Shown piece by piece: positions 603-49,665 of a DNA stretch of 49,665 bases. The first letter of the stretch is position 1, and the number at the start of each line of letters is the position of its first letter. Made by a program: the position numbers and the translations under genes. The stretch lies in the sequence record OQ417974.1; one strand, 5' to 3'. Origin of the DNA: Mycobacterium phage prophiCCUG48898T-1. A model generated the notes under the pieces. The model ran no database searches. It was not told the origin of the DNA and saw only the letters and a list, made by a program, of their open reading frames with translations.

Positions 603-1366
603 GCGCGCCAGTGATCGTTTCCCCGTTCGACGCGATCCGTCACCTGACTGACGAGGGCCGCGAGTACTGGTCGGCACGTGATCTCATGCCGCTGCTCGGA
701 TACGAGAAGTGGGAGCGGTTCGCCGACGCCATCAGCCGTGCCAAGCTTGCCGCCCGCAATGCTGGGTACGACGCAGCGCAAAACTTTCCCGCCTCCGGGA
801 AAGTTTCTGGGAGCCGAGGACCGGCACAGGCTGACTACCACCTCTCCCGGTACGCCTGCTATCTCGTCGCACTCAATGGCGATCCACGCAAGCCTGAAAT
901 CGCAGCCGCGCAGACATACTTCGTCATCAAGACCCGTGAGGCCGAGACCGCCACGGCCGCGCCCGCGCTCACGGGCACCGACCTACTCGCCGCCGCCGTG
1001 CTCGAAGCCCAGCGGATGATCGAGGCCAAGGATGCTCGAATCGCCGAGCTGGAGCCCAAGGCCGACCTTGCAGATACATACCTCACTGCACAGGGTGGGT
1101 CCCGGTTGATCCGGGAAGCCGCCAAGCTGCTCGGCATGCGCGAGCGCGAGTTTCGCCAGTGGCTCCTGGATGAGCGGCTGATCTTCGCCAAACACGCTCC
1201 GTGCGGCGCGGTGCAGTACGACCACTACGCGCAGTTCACGCACTACTTCCAAGCGCACGAGCACGTCGTCGCGCACTCATGGGGCAGCTGTGCCCACTAC
1301 ACCTTGCGCATTCTGCCGCGAGGGATGGAACTCATCACCGCACGCTTGGGCCGAATCTCCAAGTAA
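572..1366 (+). CDS. Antirepressor (Bro-N N-terminal domain plus KilA-C-like C-terminal domain); alternative GTG start at 599
   Basis: N-terminal motif FDAIRHLTDEGREYWSARDLMPLLGY is typical of Bro-N/AntA. The C-terminal region ADTYLTAQGGSRLIREAAKLLGMREREFRQWLLDERLIF is KilAC-like. Confidence 0.75.
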   Translation: MQSVQGGGLVSAPVIVSPFDAIRHLTDEGREYWSARDLMPLLGYEKWERFADAISRAKLAARNAGYDAAQNFPASGKVSGSRGPAQADYHLSRYACYLVALNGDPRKPEIAAAQTYFVIKTREAETATAAPALTGTDLLAAAVLEAQRMIEAKDARIAELEPKADLADTYLTAQGGSRLIREAAKLLGMREREFRQWLLDERLIFAKHAPCGAVQYDHYAQFTHYFQAHEHVVAHSWGSCAHYTLRILPRGMELITARLGRISK

Positions 1367-1394
1367 TCGCAAGTCCCACAACTGAATAAGTAAA

Positions 1395-1435
1395 GACGCT
1401 GGCGGTCCCGTCGCCAAACAGAAACCGCCAGCGTC
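1395..1435 (+). terminator. Strong hairpin (12-bp perfect stem gacgctggcggt/accgccagcgtc, 17-nt loop) after the antirepressor gene; possible intrinsic terminator or attenuator without a U-tract
   Basis: The inverted repeat is read directly from the sequence. Confidence 0.4.
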
Positions 1436-1468
1436 CCCTACCAACCAATCCTACTGAGAGGACTTGGC

Positions 1469-1855
1469 ATGCCCCAACATATCCGCAGGCGGTCGCACGG
1501 GCGCCGCCGACCCCGGCTGAGCAGCTACGACGCGATCACCATTGTGCTAGCCGCTATCGCGGTGCTCGCCGCGATGCTGCTGGCCTCCCCGGACTCGCAC
1601 GCCGACCCGGTGACCGATGACTTCGTGACGACGAGCGGCTGGCGCGTGTGCAACGAGCTGGACGCGCAGCCCAATTTCGACGGCATCCGGTACTCATACC
1701 GGGCACTGTCCGCGCGCGGCTACAGCCTCGATCAGTCGGCCCAGATCATCGTGGGATCGGTGAAGGTGTGGTGCAAACGCCATGCACCACTGCTCAAGTC
1801 ATACGCCGACACCTATGCTTCCGCGCCGCAGCAGAGCCAGGGGCGTGCGGCATGA
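1469..1855 (+). CDS. Small secreted or membrane-anchored protein (N-terminal basic region plus hydrophobic signal/anchor, predicted cleavage near SHA/DP)
   Basis: MPQHIRRRSHGRRRPRLSSYDAITIVLAAIAVLAAMLLASPDSHADP...; two Cys in the mature part. Confidence 0.5.
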   Translation: MPQHIRRRSHGRRRPRLSSYDAITIVLAAIAVLAAMLLASPDSHADPVTDDFVTTSGWRVCNELDAQPNFDGIRYSYRALSARGYSLDQSAQIIVGSVKVWCKRHAPLLKSYADTYASAPQQSQGRAA

Positions 1856-2172
1856 CCATCACCTTTGACCCCAACCCGACGTTCGACGAGCTCATGGCCG
1901 CGTTCGACAAGGCCGAGCAGAAGTGCTCCCCCAGCGTCGTGAATATCATCCTGGATCTCGAAATCGCCGATCTGTTCGAGAGATTGGGCAATCGCGGCAT
2001 CGCCGTATTGGTCGCCAATCAGAAGGCGTGGCGCGAGTCCGTCAAGGAGTCCGGTACAGACCCGCGATGCGCCTGGACCACCGACGCTAGCGCCGAGGTC
2101 GTGCTCGTCGAGTTCTTCACCGATCGCGACAACCGGGACAAAGCCAGCGCCGTGCTCAAGGCGGATGCGTAA
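1852..2172 (+). CDS. Hypothetical protein (106 aa)
   Basis: ATGA overlap with the upstream stop; in operon context. Confidence 0.5.
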   Translation: MTITFDPNPTFDELMAAFDKAEQKCSPSVVNIILDLEIADLFERLGNRGIAVLVANQKAWRESVKESGTDPRCAWTTDASAEVVLVEFFTDRDNRDKASAVLKADA

Positions 2173-2459
2173 TGACCGAGGGCACAACACATACCGCGAC
2201 CGGGTTCCTGATTCTCGAAGCATCCAGATACAGGTACGGACTCGCTGGCGAGGACGGACTCAGGCCGGTTGATGGCCTGCGCATCGTTGGCCAGCGCGCG
2301 AACCGACCGGCGAAACTGGCCCGTGACCAGATCGCCGTCAAGGTAGCGATCACCATCGACGACGCCGAATTCTCCCCTATTACAGCGACACTCGCGCTCA
2401 CCCTCGACCCGTCGCGGGTCATCCATCCGGTTGTCGAGGATCTGGAGCCTGGCGAGTGA
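2172..2459 (+). CDS. Hypothetical protein (95 aa)
   Basis: The start overlaps the upstream stop (TAATG). Confidence 0.45.
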   Translation: MTEGTTHTATGFLILEASRYRYGLAGEDGLRPVDGLRIVGQRANRPAKLARDQIAVKVAITIDDAEFSPITATLALTLDPSRVIHPVVEDLEPGE

Positions 2460-2662
2460 ATCGGTACTACTGCCCCGTGTGTTGGGCCCGAGTAAAGCGC
2501 TCCAGCGGAGGCAATATCACGGGGCATTTCGACACCGTGACCAGGCCTTGCCCCGCTTCGGGATACCCGTTCTCCATTGCGTTGATAACCCCGCTCAACG
2601 GTGCCGGGTTGCGGAACACCATCAAGCGGATTCACGAGCTACGAGAGGCGATTGCCGCATGA
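2456..2662 (+). CDS. Small Cys-containing hypothetical protein (CPVC...CP motif)
   Basis: 68-aa ORF; GTG start overlaps the upstream stop. Confidence 0.4.
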   Translation: MNRYYCPVCWARVKRSSGGNITGHFDTVTRPCPASGYPFSIALITPLNGAGLRNTIKRIHELREAIAA

Positions 2663-3552
2663 CAACTACCGCCGAAATCCCCACCGCTGACGGCCTATAC
2701 AGCGGTATTCCTGATGAGGTCTACCACGCTGACCGCACCAGCTTGTCGTCGTCGGGTGCTCGTGCACTGCTGGCGCCGTCCTCGCCCGAGATCTTCCACT
2801 ACCAGCAGGGGCAACCGCCAGAACCCAAGCCGCAATACGACTTCGGGCACGTTGCCCACAAGTTCGTGCTGGGCGAAGGCGCCGATATCTGCGAGCTAGA
2901 TCCGGCCGTTCACGGGCTGAACAAGGATGGCTCCCCCGCCAAGTCGCCCACCGCCACCGCGATGTGGCAGGCAGCGGCCGAGGAAGCGCGCAAGGCCGGT
3001 CAGATCCCGATGCACATCGCCGAGGTGGCCAAGGCCAAAGCGATGGCAGCCAGGGTGCACGAGCACCCGCTCGCCGGGCCGCTACTAGCCGACGGGACAC
3101 CGGAGCTGTCCGGGTACTGGCACGACCGGGAGACGGGCGTGCGCCTGCGGTTCCGGCCCGACTGGCTGCCCAACCCCGGCCGGGGACGGCTGATCGTCGT
3201 GGACTACAAGACAAGCTCCAGCGCCTACCCGGGCCACTTCGCCAAGTCCGCAGCCGAATACGGCTACCACCAGCAGGCGCCGTGGTATCTGGACGGCCTG
3301 GCCGCGTGCGAGATCGCCGACGACGCCGCGTTCCTGTTCGTCGTCCAGTCCAAAACGGCGCCCTACCCGATCACCGTGGTCGAGCTCAAGCCCGAAGACA
3401 TCGACCTCGGCCGGCGCCGCAACCGCAAGGCCATCGACCTGTACGCCCAATGCGTCGCCGATGACCACTGGCCCGGCTACGGCGACCACGTGCACTCGGT
3501 ATCGCTCCCCAGTTACGCCACCTACCAGCAAGAAGGAGAACTCGATCAGTGA
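2659..3552 (+). CDS. RecB-family PD-(D/E)XK exonuclease (RecE/Cas4-like nuclease domain, lacking the Cas4 Cys cluster)
   Basis: Motifs LIVVDYKTSSS (D-x-K) and YGYHQQAPWY (QxxxY) are typical of RecB-family nucleases. ATG at 2659 lies within track ORF 2431..3552. Confidence 0.7.
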   Translation: MTTTAEIPTADGLYSGIPDEVYHADRTSLSSSGARALLAPSSPEIFHYQQGQPPEPKPQYDFGHVAHKFVLGEGADICELDPAVHGLNKDGSPAKSPTATAMWQAAAEEARKAGQIPMHIAEVAKAKAMAARVHEHPLAGPLLADGTPELSGYWHDRETGVRLRFRPDWLPNPGRGRLIVVDYKTSSSAYPGHFAKSAAEYGYHQQAPWYLDGLAACEIADDAAFLFVVQSKTAPYPITVVELKPEDIDLGRRRNRKAIDLYAQCVADDHWPGYGDHVHSVSLPSYATYQQEGELDQ

Positions 3553-4670
3553 CCGTCACCCCCTACCAGCCCATCTCACCCGCACCGCGCACAACGGTCA
3601 GCCAAGCCACCTCAGTCGAACAGTCGCGCGCCGTCGCCGAGGTCCAATCCGCCGTCATCGTGGCCCAGCAGATCCCGCGTGACATGCAGCGGGCCGAAGC
3701 GGAGATGCGCGATACGTGCAATCGATCCGCGATGGCGAAACAGGCCTTCTACCAAGTGCCGAACCGAGGCAACGGCGCATCGGTGCACCTCATGCGCGAA
3801 CTCGCGCGAGTCTGGGGCAACGTGCAGTACGGCGTCAACGAGCTGCACCGCGACGACTCCCGGGGCGAGTCGGAGGTTCAGGCGTGGGCGTGGGATGTGC
3901 AGACCAACACCCGCTCTACGCGCACCTTCATCGTCCCTCATGCCCGCATGTCAAAGGGGCGCCGCCAAGAACTCACCGACCTTGGTGACATCACGAACAA
4001 CAACAACAATGCGGGCGCTCGCGCTGTCCGTGAGTGCATCAACGCCATCTTGCCCAAGTGGTTTACCGAAGCGGCACAGGACATCTGCAAGGCCACGCTG
4101 GAGAACGGCGAGGGCGTGCCCTTGCCCAAGCGCATCGAGGACATGATCGCCGGATTCCGTGCCATCGGCGTCTCCCAGGCGCAATTGGAGACCAAGATCG
4201 GCAAGAAGCGCGGCGCCTGGGATGCGGGCGATGTCGCGCAGATGGGCATCACCTATACCTCGATCACCCGCGACGGCTACGACAAAGCCGAGATGTTCCC
4301 GCCGCTCGCGGGAGTGACAACCGACGAGATCAAGGCCAAGGCCCCGGACAAACCGAAGGCCGAAGCGACACCAGCTCCCGAGAAGGCACCAAGCCCGGAG
4401 AAGGTCGAGGAAGCGCCCGAGGCCAACCCCGCTGAATACAACTCGCGCGGTGAGTTTCTGGCCACCAAAAAGACCATCGGCACCATCCGCGGGCTGCTCG
4501 GCAACGCGGGCTATTCCCTGCGCGGCGATGCGGCCACCGTCAAGACGCTCACCTATCTGGCCACTGTCGTCGGCCGCGAAATCGCCGATGTCAACGACCT
4601 ATCCGAAGCCGAGGCCGAGGTAGTGACCGACGTTCTGAACCAACCCACCACAACAGAAGGGAATGAATAA
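3549..4670 (+). CDS. Putative single-strand annealing protein (RecT-like), with a Pro/Lys/Ala/Glu-rich linker and a C-terminal domain
   Basis: It lies directly downstream of the PD-(D/E)XK exonuclease and is translationally coupled to it, as in RecET-like modules. It has the low-complexity linker APDKPKAEATPAPEKAPSPEKVEEAPEA. The family call is an inference. Confidence 0.5.
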   Translation: MTVTPYQPISPAPRTTVSQATSVEQSRAVAEVQSAVIVAQQIPRDMQRAEAEMRDTCNRSAMAKQAFYQVPNRGNGASVHLMRELARVWGNVQYGVNELHRDDSRGESEVQAWAWDVQTNTRSTRTFIVPHARMSKGRRQELTDLGDITNNNNNAGARAVRECINAILPKWFTEAAQDICKATLENGEGVPLPKRIEDMIAGFRAIGVSQAQLETKIGKKRGAWDAGDVAQMGITYTSITRDGYDKAEMFPPLAGVTTDEIKAKAPDKPKAEATPAPEKAPSPEKVEEAPEANPAEYNSRGEFLATKKTIGTIRGLLGNAGYSLRGDAATVKTLTYLATVVGREIADVNDLSEAEAEVVTDVLNQPTTTEGNE

Positions 4671-4672
4671 CC

Positions 4673-5014
4673 ATGTCCGACAACGACACCGAGAAGAAAG
4701 AGGAAGGCACCGAACTCGCGCCAGGTGACATCACCGAGTTCATCGTCGTATTCACTCAGCTCAACAAGGGCCGCACTCAGCTCGAAGCAACCAAGGCTCT
4801 GCACGAGGTCGTCGAGGCCGCGATGGCCACCGGTAAGAAGACCGGCACCGTCACGATCAAGATCAAGGTCGAGCCGCTGGAGTCCGGCGCAGTCAGCCTC
4901 GTGCCCGATGTCACCAGCAACCCTGCCAAGGACCCGGCCGGAACGATTTTCTTCGCCGACGGCGAGGGCGGCCTATCCCGCGACAACGCCAGCATGCACT
5001 ACGGCCTCAGGTAA
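4673..5014 (+). CDS. Hypothetical protein (113 aa)
   Basis: ORF with a good AAGGGAATGAATAACCATG spacing context. Confidence 0.5.
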   Translation: MSDNDTEKKEEGTELAPGDITEFIVVFTQLNKGRTQLEATKALHEVVEAAMATGKKTGTVTIKIKVEPLESGAVSLVPDVTSNPAKDPAGTIFFADGEGGLSRDNASMHYGLR

Positions 5015-5041
5015 CCCAACCCACCCGAAGGAGTAACACCC

Positions 5042-5878
5042 ATGTCCGACAACACCATTGCACTACCAAAGCACGACGCCGATCTGATCGACGAGCCCGA
5101 CGCCGACACCCCGCTCTACCTCGTCACCGCCAACGGCGAGAACGGCCTCCAGACCGAGGTTGTCGACGTACGGGGCAAGGTACCCGCCGCGTTCCCGCCG
5201 CGCGCACCTGAGCGCCGAACCGTCACCGACACCGCCTCATTCCTTGCCGAGGTCACCCGCCGGCCACTACTCCAAGGCCTCTCGACCGTCTGGGGGAACC
5301 GCGACAAGGGGCAGGTCAGCGTCATCTACAACGAACTCGGCACGGACGCGACGGCGGACTACACCCGCCGAAACGATCTGCTCACTCTTCAGTTCGTCGC
5401 GGACCCGGACTGGGCGACCCTATTTAAGGCCGCTGACGGCGAGTACCACGGCCAGGAGAAGTTTGGCGATTTAATCGAGCAGGCCGGACACCTGATCACC
5501 AGCCATCCGGCCGCCGAGGTCGTTGAAATCGTCGACAGCATCCAGTCATCCAGCAATGGGTCATTCAAGTCTCAGATCAAGCGCGACACCGGAAGTCAGC
5601 ACCTCACCTACAGCGAGGAAGTCACCGCATCGGCGGGCACCGCCACCCGGCCACTTGAAGTACCGCGAGAGATCACGCTCGCTGCGCGGCCGTTCGAGGA
5701 CTACCCGCTGATCGAGGTGACGTGCTGGCTGCGCCTGCGCGTGAGCCAGGGGCAGCTATTCCTGGGGTTGTTCCCCAAGCCATATGAGCACTTGGTGCGC
5801 GATGCCTGGACGCAGAAGACCGGCGAGCTGTCCGAAGCACTCGGGGTGCCCGTCTACGCCGCCAACCTCGGCAAGTAG
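5042..5878 (+). CDS. Hypothetical protein (278 aa); possibly DUF2303/YfdQ-like, a family often found beside phage recT genes
   Basis: RBS GAAGGAG precedes the ATG. Its position within the recombination module supports the call. The family assignment is not verified. Confidence 0.5.
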   Translation: MSDNTIALPKHDADLIDEPDADTPLYLVTANGENGLQTEVVDVRGKVPAAFPPRAPERRTVTDTASFLAEVTRRPLLQGLSTVWGNRDKGQVSVIYNELGTDATADYTRRNDLLTLQFVADPDWATLFKAADGEYHGQEKFGDLIEQAGHLITSHPAAEVVEIVDSIQSSSNGSFKSQIKRDTGSQHLTYSEEVTASAGTATRPLEVPREITLAARPFEDYPLIEVTCWLRLRVSQGQLFLGLFPKPYEHLVRDAWTQKTGELSEALGVPVYAANLGK

Positions 5879-44583: not shown

Positions 44584-44831
44584 GCCCCGACCAGATCCAA
44601 GCCGTCGGCGGCGCCATCGTCGCCATCCTGGGCGCCTGGCAAGCCCGCACCTCGCGCAAAGTCCGCGACCTGGAAGCTCAACTAGCCATCGTCGTAGGCC
44701 AGCGCGACCAATATCGTGACAAACTCCGCGCAGCCGTCCGACACATCCGCGAATGGATGGGCTGGGCGCGACAACACAGACCCGAAACGCCCACACCCGA
44801 ACTACCAGCAGAGCTGGTCGACGAGGTGTAG
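44580..44831 (+). CDS. Small membrane protein (N-terminal TM), possible holin accessory
   Basis: VSPDQIQAVGGAIVAILGAWQA...; GTG overlap. Confidence 0.4.
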   Translation: MSPDQIQAVGGAIVAILGAWQARTSRKVRDLEAQLAIVVGQRDQYRDKLRAAVRHIREWMGWARQHRPETPTPELPAELVDEV

Positions 44832-44864
44832 AGAGCCCACACTGATTGCAGGCCAACGAAATAA

Positions 44865-44906
44865 CGCCCCTCACCCCGACCCGGTGAGGGGCGCTATTCG
44901 TGTTTC
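44865..44906. terminator. Bidirectional intrinsic terminator at the convergence of the late operon and the leftward right-arm operon
   Basis: Perfect 10-bp stem gcccctcacc/ggtgaggggc with a 7-nt loop. T-rich tails on both strands (gctattcgtgtttct on +, gttatttcgtt on -). Confidence 0.6.
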
Positions 44907-44913
44907 TAGTGCA

Positions 44914-45342
44914 CTAATCCAGCACGCGGGCCCGGCTTTGCGTTGTGCCGTTTCTGTCCACCACCGCATCGCAGGTGTAGGGACGCATCCCCGTGTAACC
45001 ACCAAACGCGTTCTTGGCGTTGACATTGCCCGTCACCGTAAAGTAAATATCACCGCGGTCGGGCGAGTAGTCCAACTCGGGATCGCGACCACCTCCATGC
45101 GCCACGCCTTCACGGGCCACCTCATCGGCGAACTTCGCACTCTCAGGGTCACGCATGCGCTTCATGAGAGCGGACTGGCATGTCTCGATCGCGTACTTTT
45201 GCCTCACTTCAACGCTCACACCAACGTTTCCGGATTGGCCCGACAGCCCTATTGCGCACGCCGCCATGAACGCCAGCAGCCCGACAAATACCCCCAGACA
45301 CACCCACAACGCTTTCGCCGGGGTGCCCATCTCTCTCGCCAT
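44914..45342 (-). CDS. Membrane-anchored or lipoprotein-like protein (142 aa); last gene of the leftward toxin operon
   Basis: N-terminal ALWVCLGVFVGLLAFMAACAIG is a signal/anchor sequence. Confidence 0.5.
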   Translation of the reverse strand: MAREMGTPAKALWVCLGVFVGLLAFMAACAIGLSGQSGNVGVSVEVRQKYAIETCQSALMKRMRDPESAKFADEVAREGVAHGGGRDPELDYSPDRGDIYFTVTGNVNAKNAFGGYTGMRPYTCDAVVDRNGTTQSRARVLD

Positions 45343-45416
45343 GGACGGCAGATTACAAGATCACGCCCAGGTCAGAAGTGGTTACAGGAGTGCTCACATC
45401 GCGGCGGGCATGCCCC

Positions 45417-45917
45417 CTACCCGGCGTCGGCGAATTCGGGTTGCTCGCGCAAGTGCCAGCCCGGCGCAACGTCCAGGTGGTTGTAGTAGTGCTGGAACAG
45501 CTCGATAGCTTCAGCGGCGGATAGGACCTCTGACGGTCGTACCAGGTACTCACTGTCGCCGTTGTAGACCGTCTCTGACTGCTCGGATTCATTTGCCGCA
45601 GAAGGCCGTCCGATGGTGTACATACGCCGAACGCCATCGGACTCTTTCCGGCGGATTTCGACGGTCAGGCGCTCGGCGGTGGCCCCGCAAGTCTGAATCC
45701 ACTCATGAGGGTATGGGAACTCGTCGTACTCAGTGCCATCGGGGACCTTATAGATCGAGAACGCCACGTCTGCGACACCATCCCGATCTTCGCCGATCGA
45801 GTTGATATTTATTTCGATCTGCCGGTGCGCCTTCCCTGGCTCAGCGCCCATCCACATAATGAAATCTTTGTCGGTAGTGTATGTATGCATCTGAAAACCA
45901 TTGCGCTCAAGACTCAT
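45417..45917 (-). CDS. Candidate immunity protein for the upstream toxin
   Basis: Its ATG overlaps the toxin stop (ATGA). 166-aa cytoplasmic acidic protein. Confidence 0.5.
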   Translation of the reverse strand: MSLERNGFQMHTYTTDKDFIMWMGAEPGKAHRQIEININSIGEDRDGVADVAFSIYKVPDGTEYDEFPYPHEWIQTCGATAERLTVEIRRKESDGVRRMYTIGRPSAANESEQSETVYNGDSEYLVRPSEVLSAAEAIELFQHYYNHLDVAPGWHLREQPEFADAG

Positions 45918-47566
45918 TCGCCCGCCACCTTAATTACCTCTACCTCAGTGACTTTCACCGTCTCGACTTCCCCGCTCCTGTTTGTGATCGTAACGTAGGC
46001 CGGATTCTCTGGAGTTACGGCCGAGTCGAACGCTCGCTGCTCTGCATTGCGTGTGGCATCACCGGATTTGACCTCAATACCTTTGTAAGTGCCGTCTGAC
46101 TTCTGCGCCAAACCATCGTAGTAGCGGCCATTCTCGACCCCATCGACCTTGGCCTTACGACGCTCAGTGCTCACCCATTCGTCCGGGTTAGCGCGCCGAT
46201 AACGATCGATACCCTCTGCCTCTGGTTGGCGACCGTATCCTCGGGCTGTGCCGCCTCGGCCTGTGAATGTGCCGATGGAATCGCGGTCGTCGCCACGGTT
46301 GATGCCCTCGCCGGGTCGTCCAGTCCGGGCCTCCATCACCGTCACGCCGTTGACCGCAGCCTCTTTCGAGAGGTCGAGGGCTGGCGGTATGGCGACGACC
46401 GCGCCACCAGCGAGTAAGCCCGCCCCGGCAACAGCGACAGGCGCCGCGACCGGTGTCGCGGCCCCACCGGTGAAGACCTCACCGACGCCCGCCGCAGCCA
46501 TCATGTCGTAGCCGACCGCCATCATGCCGACTCCAGCTGCCATCTGGATTGTCTGGCCGGGGTTGTCGATCATGGCCTGCCCCAAGGATGCAGTGGCGTT
46601 CACTACCGGGGCCACGGTGTTGTATATCTCGTTTCCGAAAAGCTCAACCTGCATCTGTACCAACGACTTTAGGGTGTCGATGACCATCGATGCGCCCTGG
46701 ATGATCGGCGCCAGCAGCAGCGCGAGCGACTGCACTTCCGACTTGAACTGGTTGACGATGTTGCGGATGTCGGCGGCGATTTTCTTTATTTCGTCGTCGT
46801 CTTCGCCGGTAATCCAGTCCACGACCTGTTTGGCACCGGTCAGCGGATTTACCAAGCGGGCCAACAGGTCCAGTATCGATGCGTGCGCCGTATCGATCTT
46901 GGCCGCGTAGTCGTTGAGCTTGGTGCCCATGGTGCTGCACATGCCGCCGACCTCGCCGACAGCACCGTCAATCGTCTTGAACGCGCTATCGATCTTGGGA
47001 CCTTCGGGGATCTGCTGGGCCTGCGCGGTTGCCTGCGCCCCCGCTAGTCCGGCCTGCTGAGCGGTGAATGCCGCACCGGCAGCCGTCCACGCGGCGCCAG
47101 CGGCGCGCAGCTTCGCCGAATCACCATTGGGCCAAATCATTCCGATGAACGGCTCCACCAGGAACCAACCGGGTGGGTCGCCAACATCGCTACCCACCGC
47201 AGACGGTGGGGTCCCGGCCTTCACCGCGGGAGTGGGTGAGGCGGCGGGCAGTGGGTCGCCGCCCTTGCCGTCGATGTTGGATGCCACCTCGGCACGCGAA
47301 TAGTTGGTCGCCGAGGCCCGGATGCCGTCAGCGGCCCGCCCGGCACCGTTGGACACGTCCACCATCGCCTCAAGGAGTTCCTTGGCTGACGAGTCATACG
47401 ATCGCGCGAACACGATCCCGGCGGGGTCATCCCCACCCATACCGGCCGAACTCGACAGCGCCGACTGCAATGCCGACAGCGCAGAGCCCCACCCGCCCAC
47501 CGAGCTGGAGACCGTTCTACCGGCGCCATCGAGGGCAACCGGGTCGACATGAATCGGGGGTGCCAT
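45914..47566 (-). CDS. Polymorphic toxin. N-terminal WXG100-like ESX/T7SS secretion domain (GGWGS and YSRAE), Gly/Ala-rich hydrophobic linker, C-terminal PD-(D/E)xK-like domain. Start ATG 47566; the track extension to 47725 is spurious.
   Basis: N-terminal DGAGRTVSSSVGGWGSALSALQ...SATNYSRAEVAS matches WxG and YxxxE. C-terminal YYDGL...GIEVKSGD...RNAEQRAFD matches D...ExK...Q. It sits directly downstream of an Esx-like pair. Confidence 0.65.
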   Translation of the reverse strand: MAPPIHVDPVALDGAGRTVSSSVGGWGSALSALQSALSSSAGMGGDDPAGIVFARSYDSSAKELLEAMVDVSNGAGRAADGIRASATNYSRAEVASNIDGKGGDPLPAASPTPAVKAGTPPSAVGSDVGDPPGWFLVEPFIGMIWPNGDSAKLRAAGAAWTAAGAAFTAQQAGLAGAQATAQAQQIPEGPKIDSAFKTIDGAVGEVGGMCSTMGTKLNDYAAKIDTAHASILDLLARLVNPLTGAKQVVDWITGEDDDEIKKIAADIRNIVNQFKSEVQSLALLLAPIIQGASMVIDTLKSLVQMQVELFGNEIYNTVAPVVNATASLGQAMIDNPGQTIQMAAGVGMMAVGYDMMAAAGVGEVFTGGAATPVAAPVAVAGAGLLAGGAVVAIPPALDLSKEAAVNGVTVMEARTGRPGEGINRGDDRDSIGTFTGRGGTARGYGRQPEAEGIDRYRRANPDEWVSTERRKAKVDGVENGRYYDGLAQKSDGTYKGIEVKSGDATRNAEQRAFDSAVTPENPAYVTITNRSGEVETVKVTEVEVIKVAGE

Positions 47567-47570
47567 CGCG

Positions 47571-47861
47571 CTATGCCCAGTTCTGCATGTTCTTGGCAGC
47601 GGCGCCTGTGTAATTGCCGTGCGCGGCGTGGCTCGCGCTACGTAGGCCCTTGAGCGCTTCGCGCATCTGCTCGGCGCCCTTGGCCCACTTCTCGTGCGCC
47701 TGCGTGTGGGCCGTGGCAGCTTCACCTGTGAAGGTGGCGTGCAGGTTGTGAACCTCGGTGTCCATGGCCGCTATCGACGCCTCGGCTCGCTGCTCAACCT
47801 CTGCCATGCGTTCGATGATCCGCATGAGCTCGTCGGGCACAACGCCGAATTCACCTGACAT
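47571..47861 (-). CDS. Esx-like small helical protein (WXG100-family partner, EsxB-like)
   Basis: 96 aa, MSGEFGVVPDELMRIIERMAEVEQRAEASIAAMDTEVHNLHATFTGEAATAHTQAHEKWAKGAEQM. Its stop lies 4 nt upstream of the toxin start. Confidence 0.55.
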   Translation of the reverse strand: MSGEFGVVPDELMRIIERMAEVEQRAEASIAAMDTEVHNLHATFTGEAATAHTQAHEKWAKGAEQMREALKGLRSASHAAHGNYTGAAAKNMQNWA

Positions 47862-47870
47862 CTTCTCCCC

Positions 47871-48182
47871 CTACATTCCGTCAGCGGCGTTGACGTTGGC
47901 GGCGGTGGCCGCATCCTGGCCCACGAACGCATCCCCGGTGCTCGCCAACAAGCTGCCCATCTGCGCAAGGCCCTGGTGTACCAGCTTGGCGCCCTCGTAC
48001 CACTGGAACCACCGCGTGGTGAACGCGCTCGCCGACCCACCAGACCAACCGGAGCCGACAAACCGCGACACCTCGGCGTCGAGGGCATCCAGCTCCGTCG
48101 CCAAACCGCCTGCGGTCGCGGTGACCAATCGCGAAACCCGCTGCAACTCTTCTGGCGAAACCCCGAGGACCCCTCCACTCAT
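47871..48182 (-). CDS. WXG100 protein (EsxA/ESAT-6-like); start ATG 48182
   Basis: MSGGVLGVSPEELQRVSRLV...FVGSGWSGGSASAFTTRWFQW; W-S-G in the central turn; about 100 aa. Confidence 0.65.
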   Translation of the reverse strand: MSGGVLGVSPEELQRVSRLVTATAGGLATELDALDAEVSRFVGSGWSGGSASAFTTRWFQWYEGAKLVHQGLAQMGSLLASTGDAFVGQDAATAANVNAADGM

Positions 48183-48279
48183 TGCCGGATGGTATCGCCG
48201 CCGAGTTTGCCACCGCAATAGGAGTGCGAAGCGATACCCATCCGACCTGCACGTTTCGGCGGCATGCGCAGGGTTATTG

Positions 48280-48636
48280 CTATTCCGTCGCGATTCCAGA
48301 CTGGTCGGGCACCGCTCTCAGTCCACGGCGCGGTGACCGAGCTTGTAAGTCTCGGACCGCTGCCGCGAAGCTATCGGCCATCCGGCGCACGTAGTCCTCA
48401 TCGACGTAGGCCTTGGCCGACTGCCGGCTGATGCCCATCAGCTCGGCGGTCAGGTCGACTTTCGCCGAAATACGCTCTCGCGCCATGGCCTCGGTCATGT
48501 TCAGGGCGTGCTGCTCAGCGAGATAGCGCACGAGCAACTGGGCGCGTTCATTCATCCAGGGGGACCGGCGAGCGGGCATTCGGAGACCATATGGGCATCC
48601 CCTCGTGCCCGCTGGCCGACCTCCTAGATGTGACAC
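48280..48636 (-). CDS. Small HTH-like protein immediately downstream of int (alternative start ATG 48556)
   Basis: MNERAQLLVRYLAEQHALNMTEAMARERISAKVDLTAELMGISRQSAKAYV is a putative HTH. Confidence 0.4.
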   Translation of the reverse strand: MSHLGGRPAGTRGCPYGLRMPARRSPWMNERAQLLVRYLAEQHALNMTEAMARERISAKVDLTAELMGISRQSAKAYVDEDYVRRMADSFAAAVRDLQARSPRRGLRAVPDQSGIATE

Positions 48637-49527
48637 CTACTTGTGACTGCGCTGTTCCATTCTCGATGCCGACGACCGCGAGGGGCACAAGTGCGACGCG
48701 AGCGAGTCGACGGACGCCGCTCCACGTCGGGTCGAGTAAGCGAGGTACCGCATGGTGGTCGCCAGGCTCTCGTGCCCCATCAATTCCTGGATATCGCGGA
48801 GGTCCGCGCCTTCGTCGGCGAGCACGGTCGCGAACCTGTGTCGCAGGGTGTGCAGCGTGTACGGGAGCCCGAGATTGGTTAGGAATTCCGCACCCACGAC
48901 CGAGACGTAGTTGGGTGTGACTGGCCCGCCGCGGGGACGGCAGAACATGGTGCCGGGTCGGCTCAGCTGAATTGCCAGACGTTGCATGACCTCGGGGGCA
49001 ACTCGGACGATGCGTTGCTTCCCTCCCTTACCGTGCACGGTCAGGAAGGCGCCGCCGCCTTCATCGGGGCGAAAGTCGTTGCGTGACATCTGCGCGATCT
49101 CCCCAGCGCGCAGACCGCAGTATCCGGCCAATAGCAGCCATGCATGGATGTCAGTCCCGACAGGCGCGCCGGTCAGCGCGATCCGCAAGTGGTCCTCGGG
49201 GATGGGCCGGGCCATACGGCGCTGAATCTTCGGTTGCACCAAGTCTTTTGCGACGTATTCGCTCGTGCGCCCACATCGGTAGGCCCACTGATAGAAGGTG
49301 CAAACATGCGACGTGTAGGTCTGGATGCTAGACGGGCACACCCGCAACGAACCCTGCCAGGCCTCAAGCTGCTCCGGGGTGGCCTCCAGCAAAGATGTTT
49401 CCCCAAGCCATCTAGCTAATCTAGCAATCTGCCCCAAGCGGTGCTCGATCGTTTTAGCTGTGAAGTTCTTCAGCTTCAGATAACGAGCAAACTCTGAGAC
49501 GACAGTGTCATTATTCACAGGTGACAT
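48637..49527 (-). CDS. int: Tyrosine integrase (site-specific recombinase, XerC/D-like catalytic domain)
   Basis: YCGLRAGEI (Arg I), LHTLRHRFAT (HxxR) and LMGHESLATTMRY (His and Tyr nucleophile). Adjacent to the att repeat. Confidence 0.85.
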   Translation of the reverse strand: MSPVNNDTVVSEFARYLKLKNFTAKTIEHRLGQIARLARWLGETSLLEATPEQLEAWQGSLRVCPSSIQTYTSHVCTFYQWAYRCGRTSEYVAKDLVQPKIQRRMARPIPEDHLRIALTGAPVGTDIHAWLLLAGYCGLRAGEIAQMSRNDFRPDEGGGAFLTVHGKGGKQRIVRVAPEVMQRLAIQLSRPGTMFCRPRGGPVTPNYVSVVGAEFLTNLGLPYTLHTLRHRFATVLADEGADLRDIQELMGHESLATTMRYLAYSTRRGAASVDSLASHLCPSRSSASRMEQRSHK

Positions 49528-49647
49528 AAGTACAGCCCGTCCTTTTGCTAGGAAACCGAACGGGTGGACTTGTTGCAGGTCAGTTGCTTCCCCGAGCGGA
49601 AACCGTGACCTGAGCTGGCGCGCCGGAACGCGGACTTATACGGTTCA

Positions 49648-49665
49648 TACTCGTGAGTAAGAACT
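49648..49665. repeat. Right copy of 18-bp direct repeat (candidate attR core); about 120 bp upstream of the integrase start codon
   Basis: Exact match to 1-18. The repeat may be longer, but the window ends here. Confidence 0.75.

Follow-up and report, generated by a model that had tools for sequence, protein, structure and literature searches.

A PEST3-type polymorphic toxin-immunity cassette in Mycobacterium phage prophiCCUG48898T-1 and a predicted nuclease fold for its toxin tip

Polymorphic toxin-immunity cassettes are common beside the attachment junctions of Mycobacterium abscessus prophages, and their expression in lysogens has been seen for the cases examined (Dedrick 2021, PMC8092301). 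They have since been named PEST (phage-encoded ESX-secreted toxin) systems, among which the PEST3 superfamily was defined with prophiGD17-1 as its representative (Abad 2023, mSystems, PMC10654092). PEST3 systems are of a four-gene type, with two upstream WXG100 genes described as 'analogous to esxF and esxE'. The N-terminal domain of the prophiGD17-1 toxin superimposes on that of CpnT (1.9 A), its C-terminus was reported to be without a 'bioinformatically informed' domain, and the cassette fails to transform M. smegmatis without imm (pLA15) and transforms it when imm is present (pLA6; PMC10654092). Here we analyse a cassette of this kind at positions 45417-48218 of Mycobacterium phage prophiCCUG48898T-1 (record OQ417974.1), the window being the whole stretch of 49,665 nucleotides.

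The other close system is the esxF-esxE-cpnT-ift operon of M. tuberculosis (Rv3905c-Rv3902c), which in M. abscessus corresponds to MAB_3112-3115; MAB_3112 and MAB_3113 are the EsxF and EsxE homologues, located upstream of the CpnT homologue (PMC13491425, 2026). Secretion of CpnT is abolished by the exchange Y88A and, separately, by deletion of esxEF (PMC8092274). We put the probability at about 80% that the locus as a whole is best explained as a PEST3-type polymorphic toxin-immunity cassette of an M. abscessus prophage. Such a cassette is already known, because the same sequence has been deposited under the same annotation, the class and its analogy to esxF-esxE-cpnT are published, and the toxicity of a close allele has been tested. 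New here are the assignment of the toxin tip to a nuclease fold with candidate catalytic residues, the DddI-like fold of the immunity protein, the mapped boundaries of the exchanged module and the likely misnaming of the toxin in NCBI.

The cassette and its secretion modules

The original prediction, made from the sequence alone, had placed a leftward toxin-immunity cassette with its own WXG100 pair between the lysis genes and int, had likened it to cassettes reported from M. abscessus prophages and had concluded that the host is a mycobacterium. The six-frame list of open reading frames bears out the four leftward genes within 45417-48218 on the minus strand (a pair of WXG100 genes followed by those for a 550-aa toxin and its immunity protein), flanked on one side by lysin A, lysin B and holin on the plus strand and on the other by a helix-turn-helix (HTH) gene and a tyrosine integrase gene. 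The likeness turned out to be membership, as the cassette is one of those described (PMC8092301, PMC10654092), and the host is equally clear: the region belongs to an M. abscessus prophage, with 44800-49665 matching at 100% identity the right end of prophiGD51-1, a Mycobacterium phage from the host M. abscessus GD51 (MW584163.1). That record labels the products of genes 75 and 74 as WXG motif proteins and that of gene 73 as a 'polymorphic toxin protein with WXG motif'; for gene 72 it gives 'polymorphic toxin immunity protein', for gene 76 an HTH protein and for gene 77 a tyrosine integrase. The supplements of Dedrick 2021 do not mention GD51-1. The features of the cassette are as follows.

47871..48182, minus strand: gene 75, EsxF-like WXG100 protein, 103 aa from ATG 48182 (PF06013; 4i0x_A; GenBank 'WXG motif protein')
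47571..47861, minus strand: gene 74, EsxE-like WXG100 partner, 96 aa (PF06013; EspC PF10824; 4i0x_B)
45914..47566, minus strand: gene 73, polymorphic toxin, 550 aa from MAPPIHVDP (open reading frame, Pfam, CpnT homology, GenBank name)
46592..47566, minus strand: toxin aa 1-325, type VII secretion substrate domain resembling the CpnT N-terminus (44% identity to CpnT; PF25547)
46376..46561, minus strand: toxin aa 336-397, Gly/Ala-rich hydrophobic linker (hydropathy, composition)
45917..46231, minus strand: toxin aa 446-550, predicted PD-(D/E)xK nuclease domain (structure model and conservation)
45417..45917, minus strand: gene 72, immunity protein, 166 aa (open reading frame; ATG overlaps the toxin TGA)
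45417..46210, minus strand: exchangeable module, toxin aa 453-550 and immunity gene (divergence among sister prophages)

Both small proteins are recognised as Esx-like by sequence profile and by their closest solved relatives. Gene 75, which contains GSGWSGGSASAF with its WxG motif at W46-S-G, scores 59.5 bits against the Pfam WXG100 family PF06013, and gene 74 scores 43.9 bits (gathering score 27.3), together with 24.9 bits for EspC (PF10824); both stay just under the cut-off of NCBIfam TIGR03930 (39.1 and 42.9 vs 44.85). The nearest relative of gene 75 in the PDB is 4i0x_A, the EsxF homologue MAB_3112 (E 3.3e-6), and that of gene 74 is 4i0x_B, the EsxE homologue MAB_3113 (E 4.8e-6). Both relatives come from one solved structure, the 4I0X heterodimer (chains A and B), and the gene order 75-74 matches theirs. 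The proposed WXG100 protein and its Esx partner are thereby sustained. Gene 74 itself has neither WxG nor YxxxD/E and carries FTG at the equivalent turn. The two genes lie 9 nt apart, gene 74 starting behind GGGGAGAAG, and 4 nt separate genes 74 and 73.

One detail of the original prediction probably does not hold, namely the start of the first WXG100 gene at 48218. TTG 48218 (115 aa) is merely the longest possible start; ATG 48182 (103 aa) and TTG 48146 (91 aa), the latter used in GenBank, are more plausible, so that the true start probably lies downstream of 48218. From ATG 48182 the protein fits the WXG100 profile from position 4, and similarity to prophiGD17-1 begins about 40 nt upstream of this codon. 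The first WXG gene of prophiGD17-1 is annotated in GenBank with 552 nt and is probably over-extended.

Four parts follow one another in the toxin: a helical secretion domain resembling that of CpnT, the Gly/Ala linker, a pre-toxin stretch that is conserved, and a toxin domain at the C-terminus that varies. Over residues 4-325 the identity to M. tuberculosis CKY63358.1, the CpnT N-terminus, is 44% (E 6e-70), and the YSRAE motif at aa 89-93 (47288-47302) aligns as Y89SRAE with Y88SLAE of CpnT. Of the two type VII motifs that had been proposed for this N-terminus, YxxxE is thus upheld by the alignment with Y88xxxE of CpnT, and the WxG motif falls away: the supposed GGWGS reads W26-G27-S28, hence W-G-S rather than W-x-G, CpnT is without Trp at that position, and a regular-expression search finds no W-x-G anywhere in the 550 residues. 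The Pfam match to WXG100_2/WXG100-like PF25547 (31.2 bits) covers aa 142-236 and not the extreme N-terminus. About 140 homologues of the N-terminal region occur in mycobacteria with varying C-termini, some of them with ADP-ribosyltransferase (ART) domains (PF03496, PF01129); a 435-aa homologue from M. shigaense bears the UniRef name CpnT. When the whole toxin was compared with the PDB by phmmer, a spurious GAPDH match was the only result.

The Gly/Ala hydrophobic linker that had been noted earlier is readily recovered at aa ~336-397, where the composition is 45% G+A with 3 charged residues and 10 small-xxx-small motifs. The alignment with CpnT ends at aa 325, leaving the linker outside the aligned part, and the stretch is kept in the relatives P0006 and L006. 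It may help membrane passage.

Comparison with the CpnT operon reveals both the common plan and its limits. The two loci share two Esx genes and a toxin in the same order, followed immediately by an antidote gene; the order-preserving matches to MAB_3112/MAB_3113 and the 44% N-terminal identity to CpnT, with YxxxE aligned, give substance to the earlier statement that the architecture mirrors esxF-esxE-cpnT-ift. They differ in the C-terminus, which here is a predicted PD-(D/E)xK nuclease and not the TNT NAD+ glycohydrolase; in the Gly/Ala linker found here where the CpnT alignment ends; in the antidote, modelled here as DddI-like and so probably unrelated to IFT; and in the genetic context, since the present cassette is prophage-borne and allelically variable.

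Exchange of the toxin tip and the immunity gene

The PEST3 cassette of prophiGD17-1 is the nearest described system, with the same order of WXG, WXG, toxin and immunity genes and a location near attR. Outside the swapped tip, DNA identity over 45417-48218 is about 95%, and toxin aa 1-452 agree in 446/452 positions. The tip is identical in 60/98 residues, however, and the immunity protein in 57% (166 aa here vs 156 aa), which makes the present cassette a different allele, and the carrier phage and the integration site are also different. In our prophage the neighbours are the tyrosine integrase and HTH genes, with attP inside the repressor gene, whereas the prophiGD17-1 cassette abuts a sequence resembling a tRNA 3' end. 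At the right end of that prophage (L004 5270-5522) the cassette by appearance directly adjoins this apparent tRNA 3' end (GGTTCGATTCCCCTTAGCTCCACCA) at attR, with neither an int nor an HTH gene in between.

The comparison extends to five sister prophages, among which toxin aa 1-452 are 99% identical (446-449/452). The last 98 residues drop to 60-64/98 (61-65%) against three prophages of the other allele and remain at 94/98 against prophi104-2, which has the same allele. Identity of the immunity protein drops to 57%, and its length is either 166 aa (GD51-1, GD104-2) or 156 aa (GD17-1, GD91-1, GD44-1). At the DNA level, identity to prophi91-1 is 40-69% in the bins 45400-46199 and 84-100% in the flanking bins (>=96% in most). 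Sister prophages therefore diverge only in toxin aa 453-550 and in the immunity gene, in line with the comparison across related prophages that had been proposed as a check for polymorphism, and, as judged from these alignments, tip and immunity gene have been exchanged cleanly as one piece.

Above the level of the tip, the whole cassette also appears to travel. The block 45417-48218 is common to the otherwise unrelated prophiGD17-1 at about 95% (the matches cover query positions 618-3419 exactly), which argues that the cassette is no product of chance; because prophiGD17-1 matches the queried 4.9-kb stretch only in this block, we regard the cassette itself as a mobile module.

A metagenome contig from a mycobacterial relative (L006) displays the same principle in an array. 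Here a full-length toxin relative carries a variant tip, and downstream of it come an immunity homologue, a further small protein and an orphan cassette, the orphan tip fragment of which begins in the conserved pre-toxin sequence and precedes another immunity homologue; this arrangement is typical of polymorphic toxin loci. After each immunity gene the contig encodes a second conserved open reading frame beginning with MSYDLFAFDP (2341-3321 and 4530-5051, plus strand; 326 and 173 aa), the longer of which, judged by eye, ends resembling the C-terminal part of the immunity protein. These frames may represent a second immunity or accessory family in the orphan tip array.

The family to which the tip belongs is broad. 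A word-indexed search returned 11 relatives, and an exhaustive profile search 360 cluster representatives (clusters at 50% identity, E<=0.001). In nearly all of the 150 of these 360 matches that were listed, the tip forms the C-terminal end, in proteins of 69-2158 aa. The 76 tip-bearing proteins scanned for domains include T7SS_signal (20/76), WXG100_2 (10/76), WXG100 (3/76) and RHS (2/76) modules. All named members are a 'hypothetical protein' or an 'RHS repeat-associated protein', and come from Gordonia, Rhodococcus and similar genera. Among the 11 relatives from the word-indexed search, the same tip is borne by a Patulibacter Hint-domain protein (P0010), whose gene overlaps by 4 nt the gene for a protein 33% identical to the gene 72 product (E 9e-19). 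The distinct C-terminal domain claimed at the outset is accordingly well founded, with the alignment to CpnT ending at aa 325 and the tip constituting a widespread family of its own at C-terminal ends.

Inter-bacterial antagonism is the best-supported role, because environmental actinobacteria carry the tip widely on their Rhs, Hint and T7SS toxins and because tip and immunity gene vary within one species. The strongest competitor, which we nevertheless hold to be unlikely, assigns the same parts to a host-directed effector delivered into the macrophage in the manner of CpnT/TNT, with the immunity protein protecting the producer only prior to export. In its favour, both the EsxEF pair and the toxin N-terminus are homologous to parts of the CpnT system, which acts on macrophages through its toxin (PMC8593097, PMC8092274) and likewise has a cytoplasmic antitoxin. 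Dedrick 2021 (PMC8092301) favours a role in in vivo growth and, in a passage citing other work, gives M. abscessus ESX-4 as required for intracellular survival. It nonetheless speaks against a macrophage target that soil actinobacteria such as Gordonia, Rhodococcus and Patulibacter bear the same tip on their Rhs, Hint and T7SS_signal proteins; cognate immunity genes and orphan arrays are a signature of bacterial competition, and the diversification of tip and immunity gene among strains of one species fits kin discrimination better.

Predicted folds of the tip and the immunity protein

Toxin domains of the PD-(D/E)xK or restriction-endonuclease fold are reportedly present in polymorphic toxin systems, examples being the Tox-REase families and Rhs nuclease tips that Zhang et al. 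are said to have described in 2012. Sequence models do not connect the present tip to any of them: it has no match in Pfam, NCBIfam, PHROG or PADLOC models, the isolated tip having been compared with Pfam at E up to 10, a threshold at which no Pfam Tox-REase appears either. No curated nuclease family of Pfam or NCBIfam matches the tip by sequence profile, and the toxin C-terminus has neither a TNT nor any other Pfam match.

The structure model leads further. AlphaFold2 predicts toxin aa 446-550 with a pLDDT (per-residue confidence) >90 as a helix, four strands, a helix and two strands, in which the alpha-beta-beta-beta-alpha-beta core of the PD-(D/E)xK fold can be seen. The acidic D484 at the start of strand 2 and the (D/E)xK motif on strand 3 are placed as in the PD-(D/E)xK superfamily. 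Among 76 tip sequences no exchange occurs at D484, E498 or Q510, and conservation reaches at least 90% at E449, R481 and K500; in a trimmed alignment of 35 tips E449, D484, E498, K500 and Q510 are all invariant. These five candidate catalytic residues lie as follows.

46220-46222, minus strand: E449, first helix of the model
46115-46117, minus strand: D484, just before a strand in the model
46073-46075, minus strand: E498, next long strand (E498-x-K500)
46067-46069, minus strand: K500, next long strand (E498-x-K500)
46037-46039, minus strand: Q510, second helix of the model

Comparisons with solved structures point in the same direction at modest scores. A profile of the 35 tips finds as its best PDB entry the Rhs protein 7q97_A, aligned on D...ExK...Q, at an E-value of 0.29 that is suggestive only; Foldseek gives no match to the PDB at E<=0.001, though nucleases dominate its list. 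With Tox-REase and Rhs nuclease tips the domain shares the alpha-beta-beta-beta-alpha-beta core, the E...D...ExK...Q series and the C-terminal position behind T7SS, Rhs and Hint modules; it differs in that the nuclease models of Pfam, Tox-REase included, do not recognise it, so that by sequence it belongs to an unnamed family. On the strength of the model, we consider the tip likely to be a metal-dependent PD-(D/E)xK nuclease of such a family. Somewhat less firmly, we favour the view that it founds an undescribed, sequence-orphan family of PD-(D/E)xK toxins, delivered by T7SS, Rhs and Hint proteins mostly of Actinobacteria, with a DddI-fold family of immunity proteins beside it.

That the C-terminal domain might be no nuclease at all, being instead an ART or having a different activity on a PD-(D/E)xK-like scaffold, we regard as improbable. 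Scores in the fold search are indeed modest, and its matches include subunits of tRNA-splicing endonuclease, of which some are non-catalytic; moreover, many NCBI and UniRef copies of the toxin (cluster P0239, the 90% cluster) are named 'NAD(+)--arginine ADP-ribosyltransferase (Mav domain protein)'. N-terminal homologues with ART tips, however, display PF03496 or PF01129, of which the present toxin has none, and the modelled alpha-beta-beta-beta-alpha-beta core places invariant acids, a lysine and a glutamine at the metal-binding positions of PD-(D/E)xK enzymes. The ART identity was rejected, as the toxin has no ART Pfam domain and its C-terminal fold models as PD-(D/E)xK. Because the C-terminus is without an ART domain, the name appears to follow the shared CpnT-like N-terminus, and many NCBI entries for this toxin thus carry a probably wrong 'ADP-ribosyltransferase' name.

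The ATG of gene 72 overlaps the TGA of gene 73 by 4 nt (GAATGAGT; ATGA), as expected from the immunity-type coupling that had been proposed for the small open reading frame at the toxin stop. Its product of 166 aa is cytoplasmic, without any hydrophobic segment, and has homologues in 80 clusters, all of those with an organism name being mycobacterial. No Pfam domain was found in the 64 homologues scanned (E up to 1), and PHROGs, NCBIfam and PADLOC are also null for the immunity protein. Its predicted structure resembles the fold of DddI, the bona fide immunity protein of the T6SS (type VI secretion) deaminase toxin DddA (6U08 chain B), which agrees with an immunity function. The resemblance is one of fold, as the two proteins are 8% identical and have no common Pfam family; in addition, the gene 72 product has some 45 extra N-terminal residues, and its cognate toxin is a predicted nuclease and not a deaminase.

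Proposed mechanism and neighbouring genes

We propose that the four genes form a single leftward unit with coupled translation. The products of genes 75 and 74 would form an EsxF/EsxE-like WXG100 heterodimer, to judge from their sequences, and by analogy this heterodimer would be needed for the export of the 550-aa toxin, just as CpnT of M. tuberculosis has been shown to depend on EsxE/EsxF. The CpnT-like N-terminal four-helix domain of the toxin would carry the YxxxE type VII signal, and export would proceed via a type VII system of the host, for which the CpnT analogy favours M. abscessus ESX-4 as the likely route, ESX-3 being possible. In the recipient cell the C-terminal ~105 residues, as modelled, would act as a metal-dependent PD-(D/E)xK nuclease damaging nucleic acid. 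The cytoplasmic, DddI-like product of gene 72 would bind and block the tip in the producer and in sister lysogens, and tip and immunity gene would be swapped jointly by recombination at the conserved pre-toxin sequence. For this cassette we infer the secretion route, the nuclease activity, the target cell and expression in the lysogen.

The ESX-4 EsxUT outer-membrane complex of M. tuberculosis was reportedly described in 2025. More speculatively, the EsxE/EsxF-like pair of the prophage could join such a complex of the host and alter, beyond the export of the toxin, the general secretion of the lysogen.

Several observations weigh against this picture. YxxxD/E is present in neither small Esx protein, and strict WxG is absent from the toxin. 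The prophiGD17-1 pair, on which the toxicity test was carried out, is only 61% (tip) and 57% (immunity) identical to the present allele, and in the PEST literature we found no report of PEST toxin secretion by an M. abscessus ESX system. Within 44600-48700 there is no sigma-70-like promoter. Since the chromosomal MAB_3112-3115 operon is wired to the SigM/ESX-4 regulon of the host, we also looked for the SigM -35 box GGAACCG, which has no exact copy near the cassette, its 11 matches across the window being at chance level; a one-mismatch GGAATCG, seen by eye, falls within the final part of the HTH gene (48291-48297), and the SigM idea was set aside, not refuted.

Least probable of all is an action inside the lysogen, either as an addiction module stabilising the prophage or as an abortive-infection defence in which phage attack would free the toxin from its immunity protein, export being irrelevant to both: the cassette does adjoin the integration locus, where mycobacteriophage defence genes usually reside, its toxin and antidote genes are tightly coupled, and Abad 2023 (PMC10654092) lists prophage-mediated defence among the open possibilities, yet no PADLOC model matches any cassette protein, three of the four genes encode secretion apparatus or signal (two Esx proteins and the 325-aa CpnT-like domain with YxxxE) and are nevertheless 99% conserved, and in nearly all of the 150 tip matches listed the tip sits C-terminally in secreted-toxin architectures.

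The genes around the cassette complete the description. Directly downstream of the immunity gene and on the same strand, gene 71 (44914-45342, minus strand; 142 aa) encodes one strongly hydrophobic N-terminal segment and a lipobox-like FMAAC and matches PHROG 2320, of unknown function (E 3e-24). It is kept beside the cassette in prophi91-1 and prophi104-2 and replaced in prophiGD44-1 and prophiGD17-1; to judge from its sequence, lysogens may express it as a membrane protein or lipoprotein. Between integrase and cassette lies gene 76 (48280-48636, minus strand; 118 aa), an HTH DNA-binding protein in GenBank without a match in Pfam, PHROG, NCBIfam or PADLOC, whose position beside int suggests an excise/recombination directionality factor or a regulator of the cassette. 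Finally, 49550-49651 (minus strand) is annotated in GenBank as one end of the immunity repressor gene of an integration-dependent immunity system; attP lies inside this gene, which is split by integration, and therefore the window ends at attR.

For this type of toxin a specific activity is now proposed, that of a PD-(D/E)xK nuclease, together with five residues named as catalytic candidates. If true, this would be the first mechanistic assignment for the PEST3 toxin that was called bioinformatically uninformed in 2023, our literature searches on prophiGD17-1 and PEST3 having found no later paper that gives its activity. Two toxin/immunity alleles circulate among clinical isolates of M. abscessus, and from this we predict strain-against-strain antagonism between lysogens.

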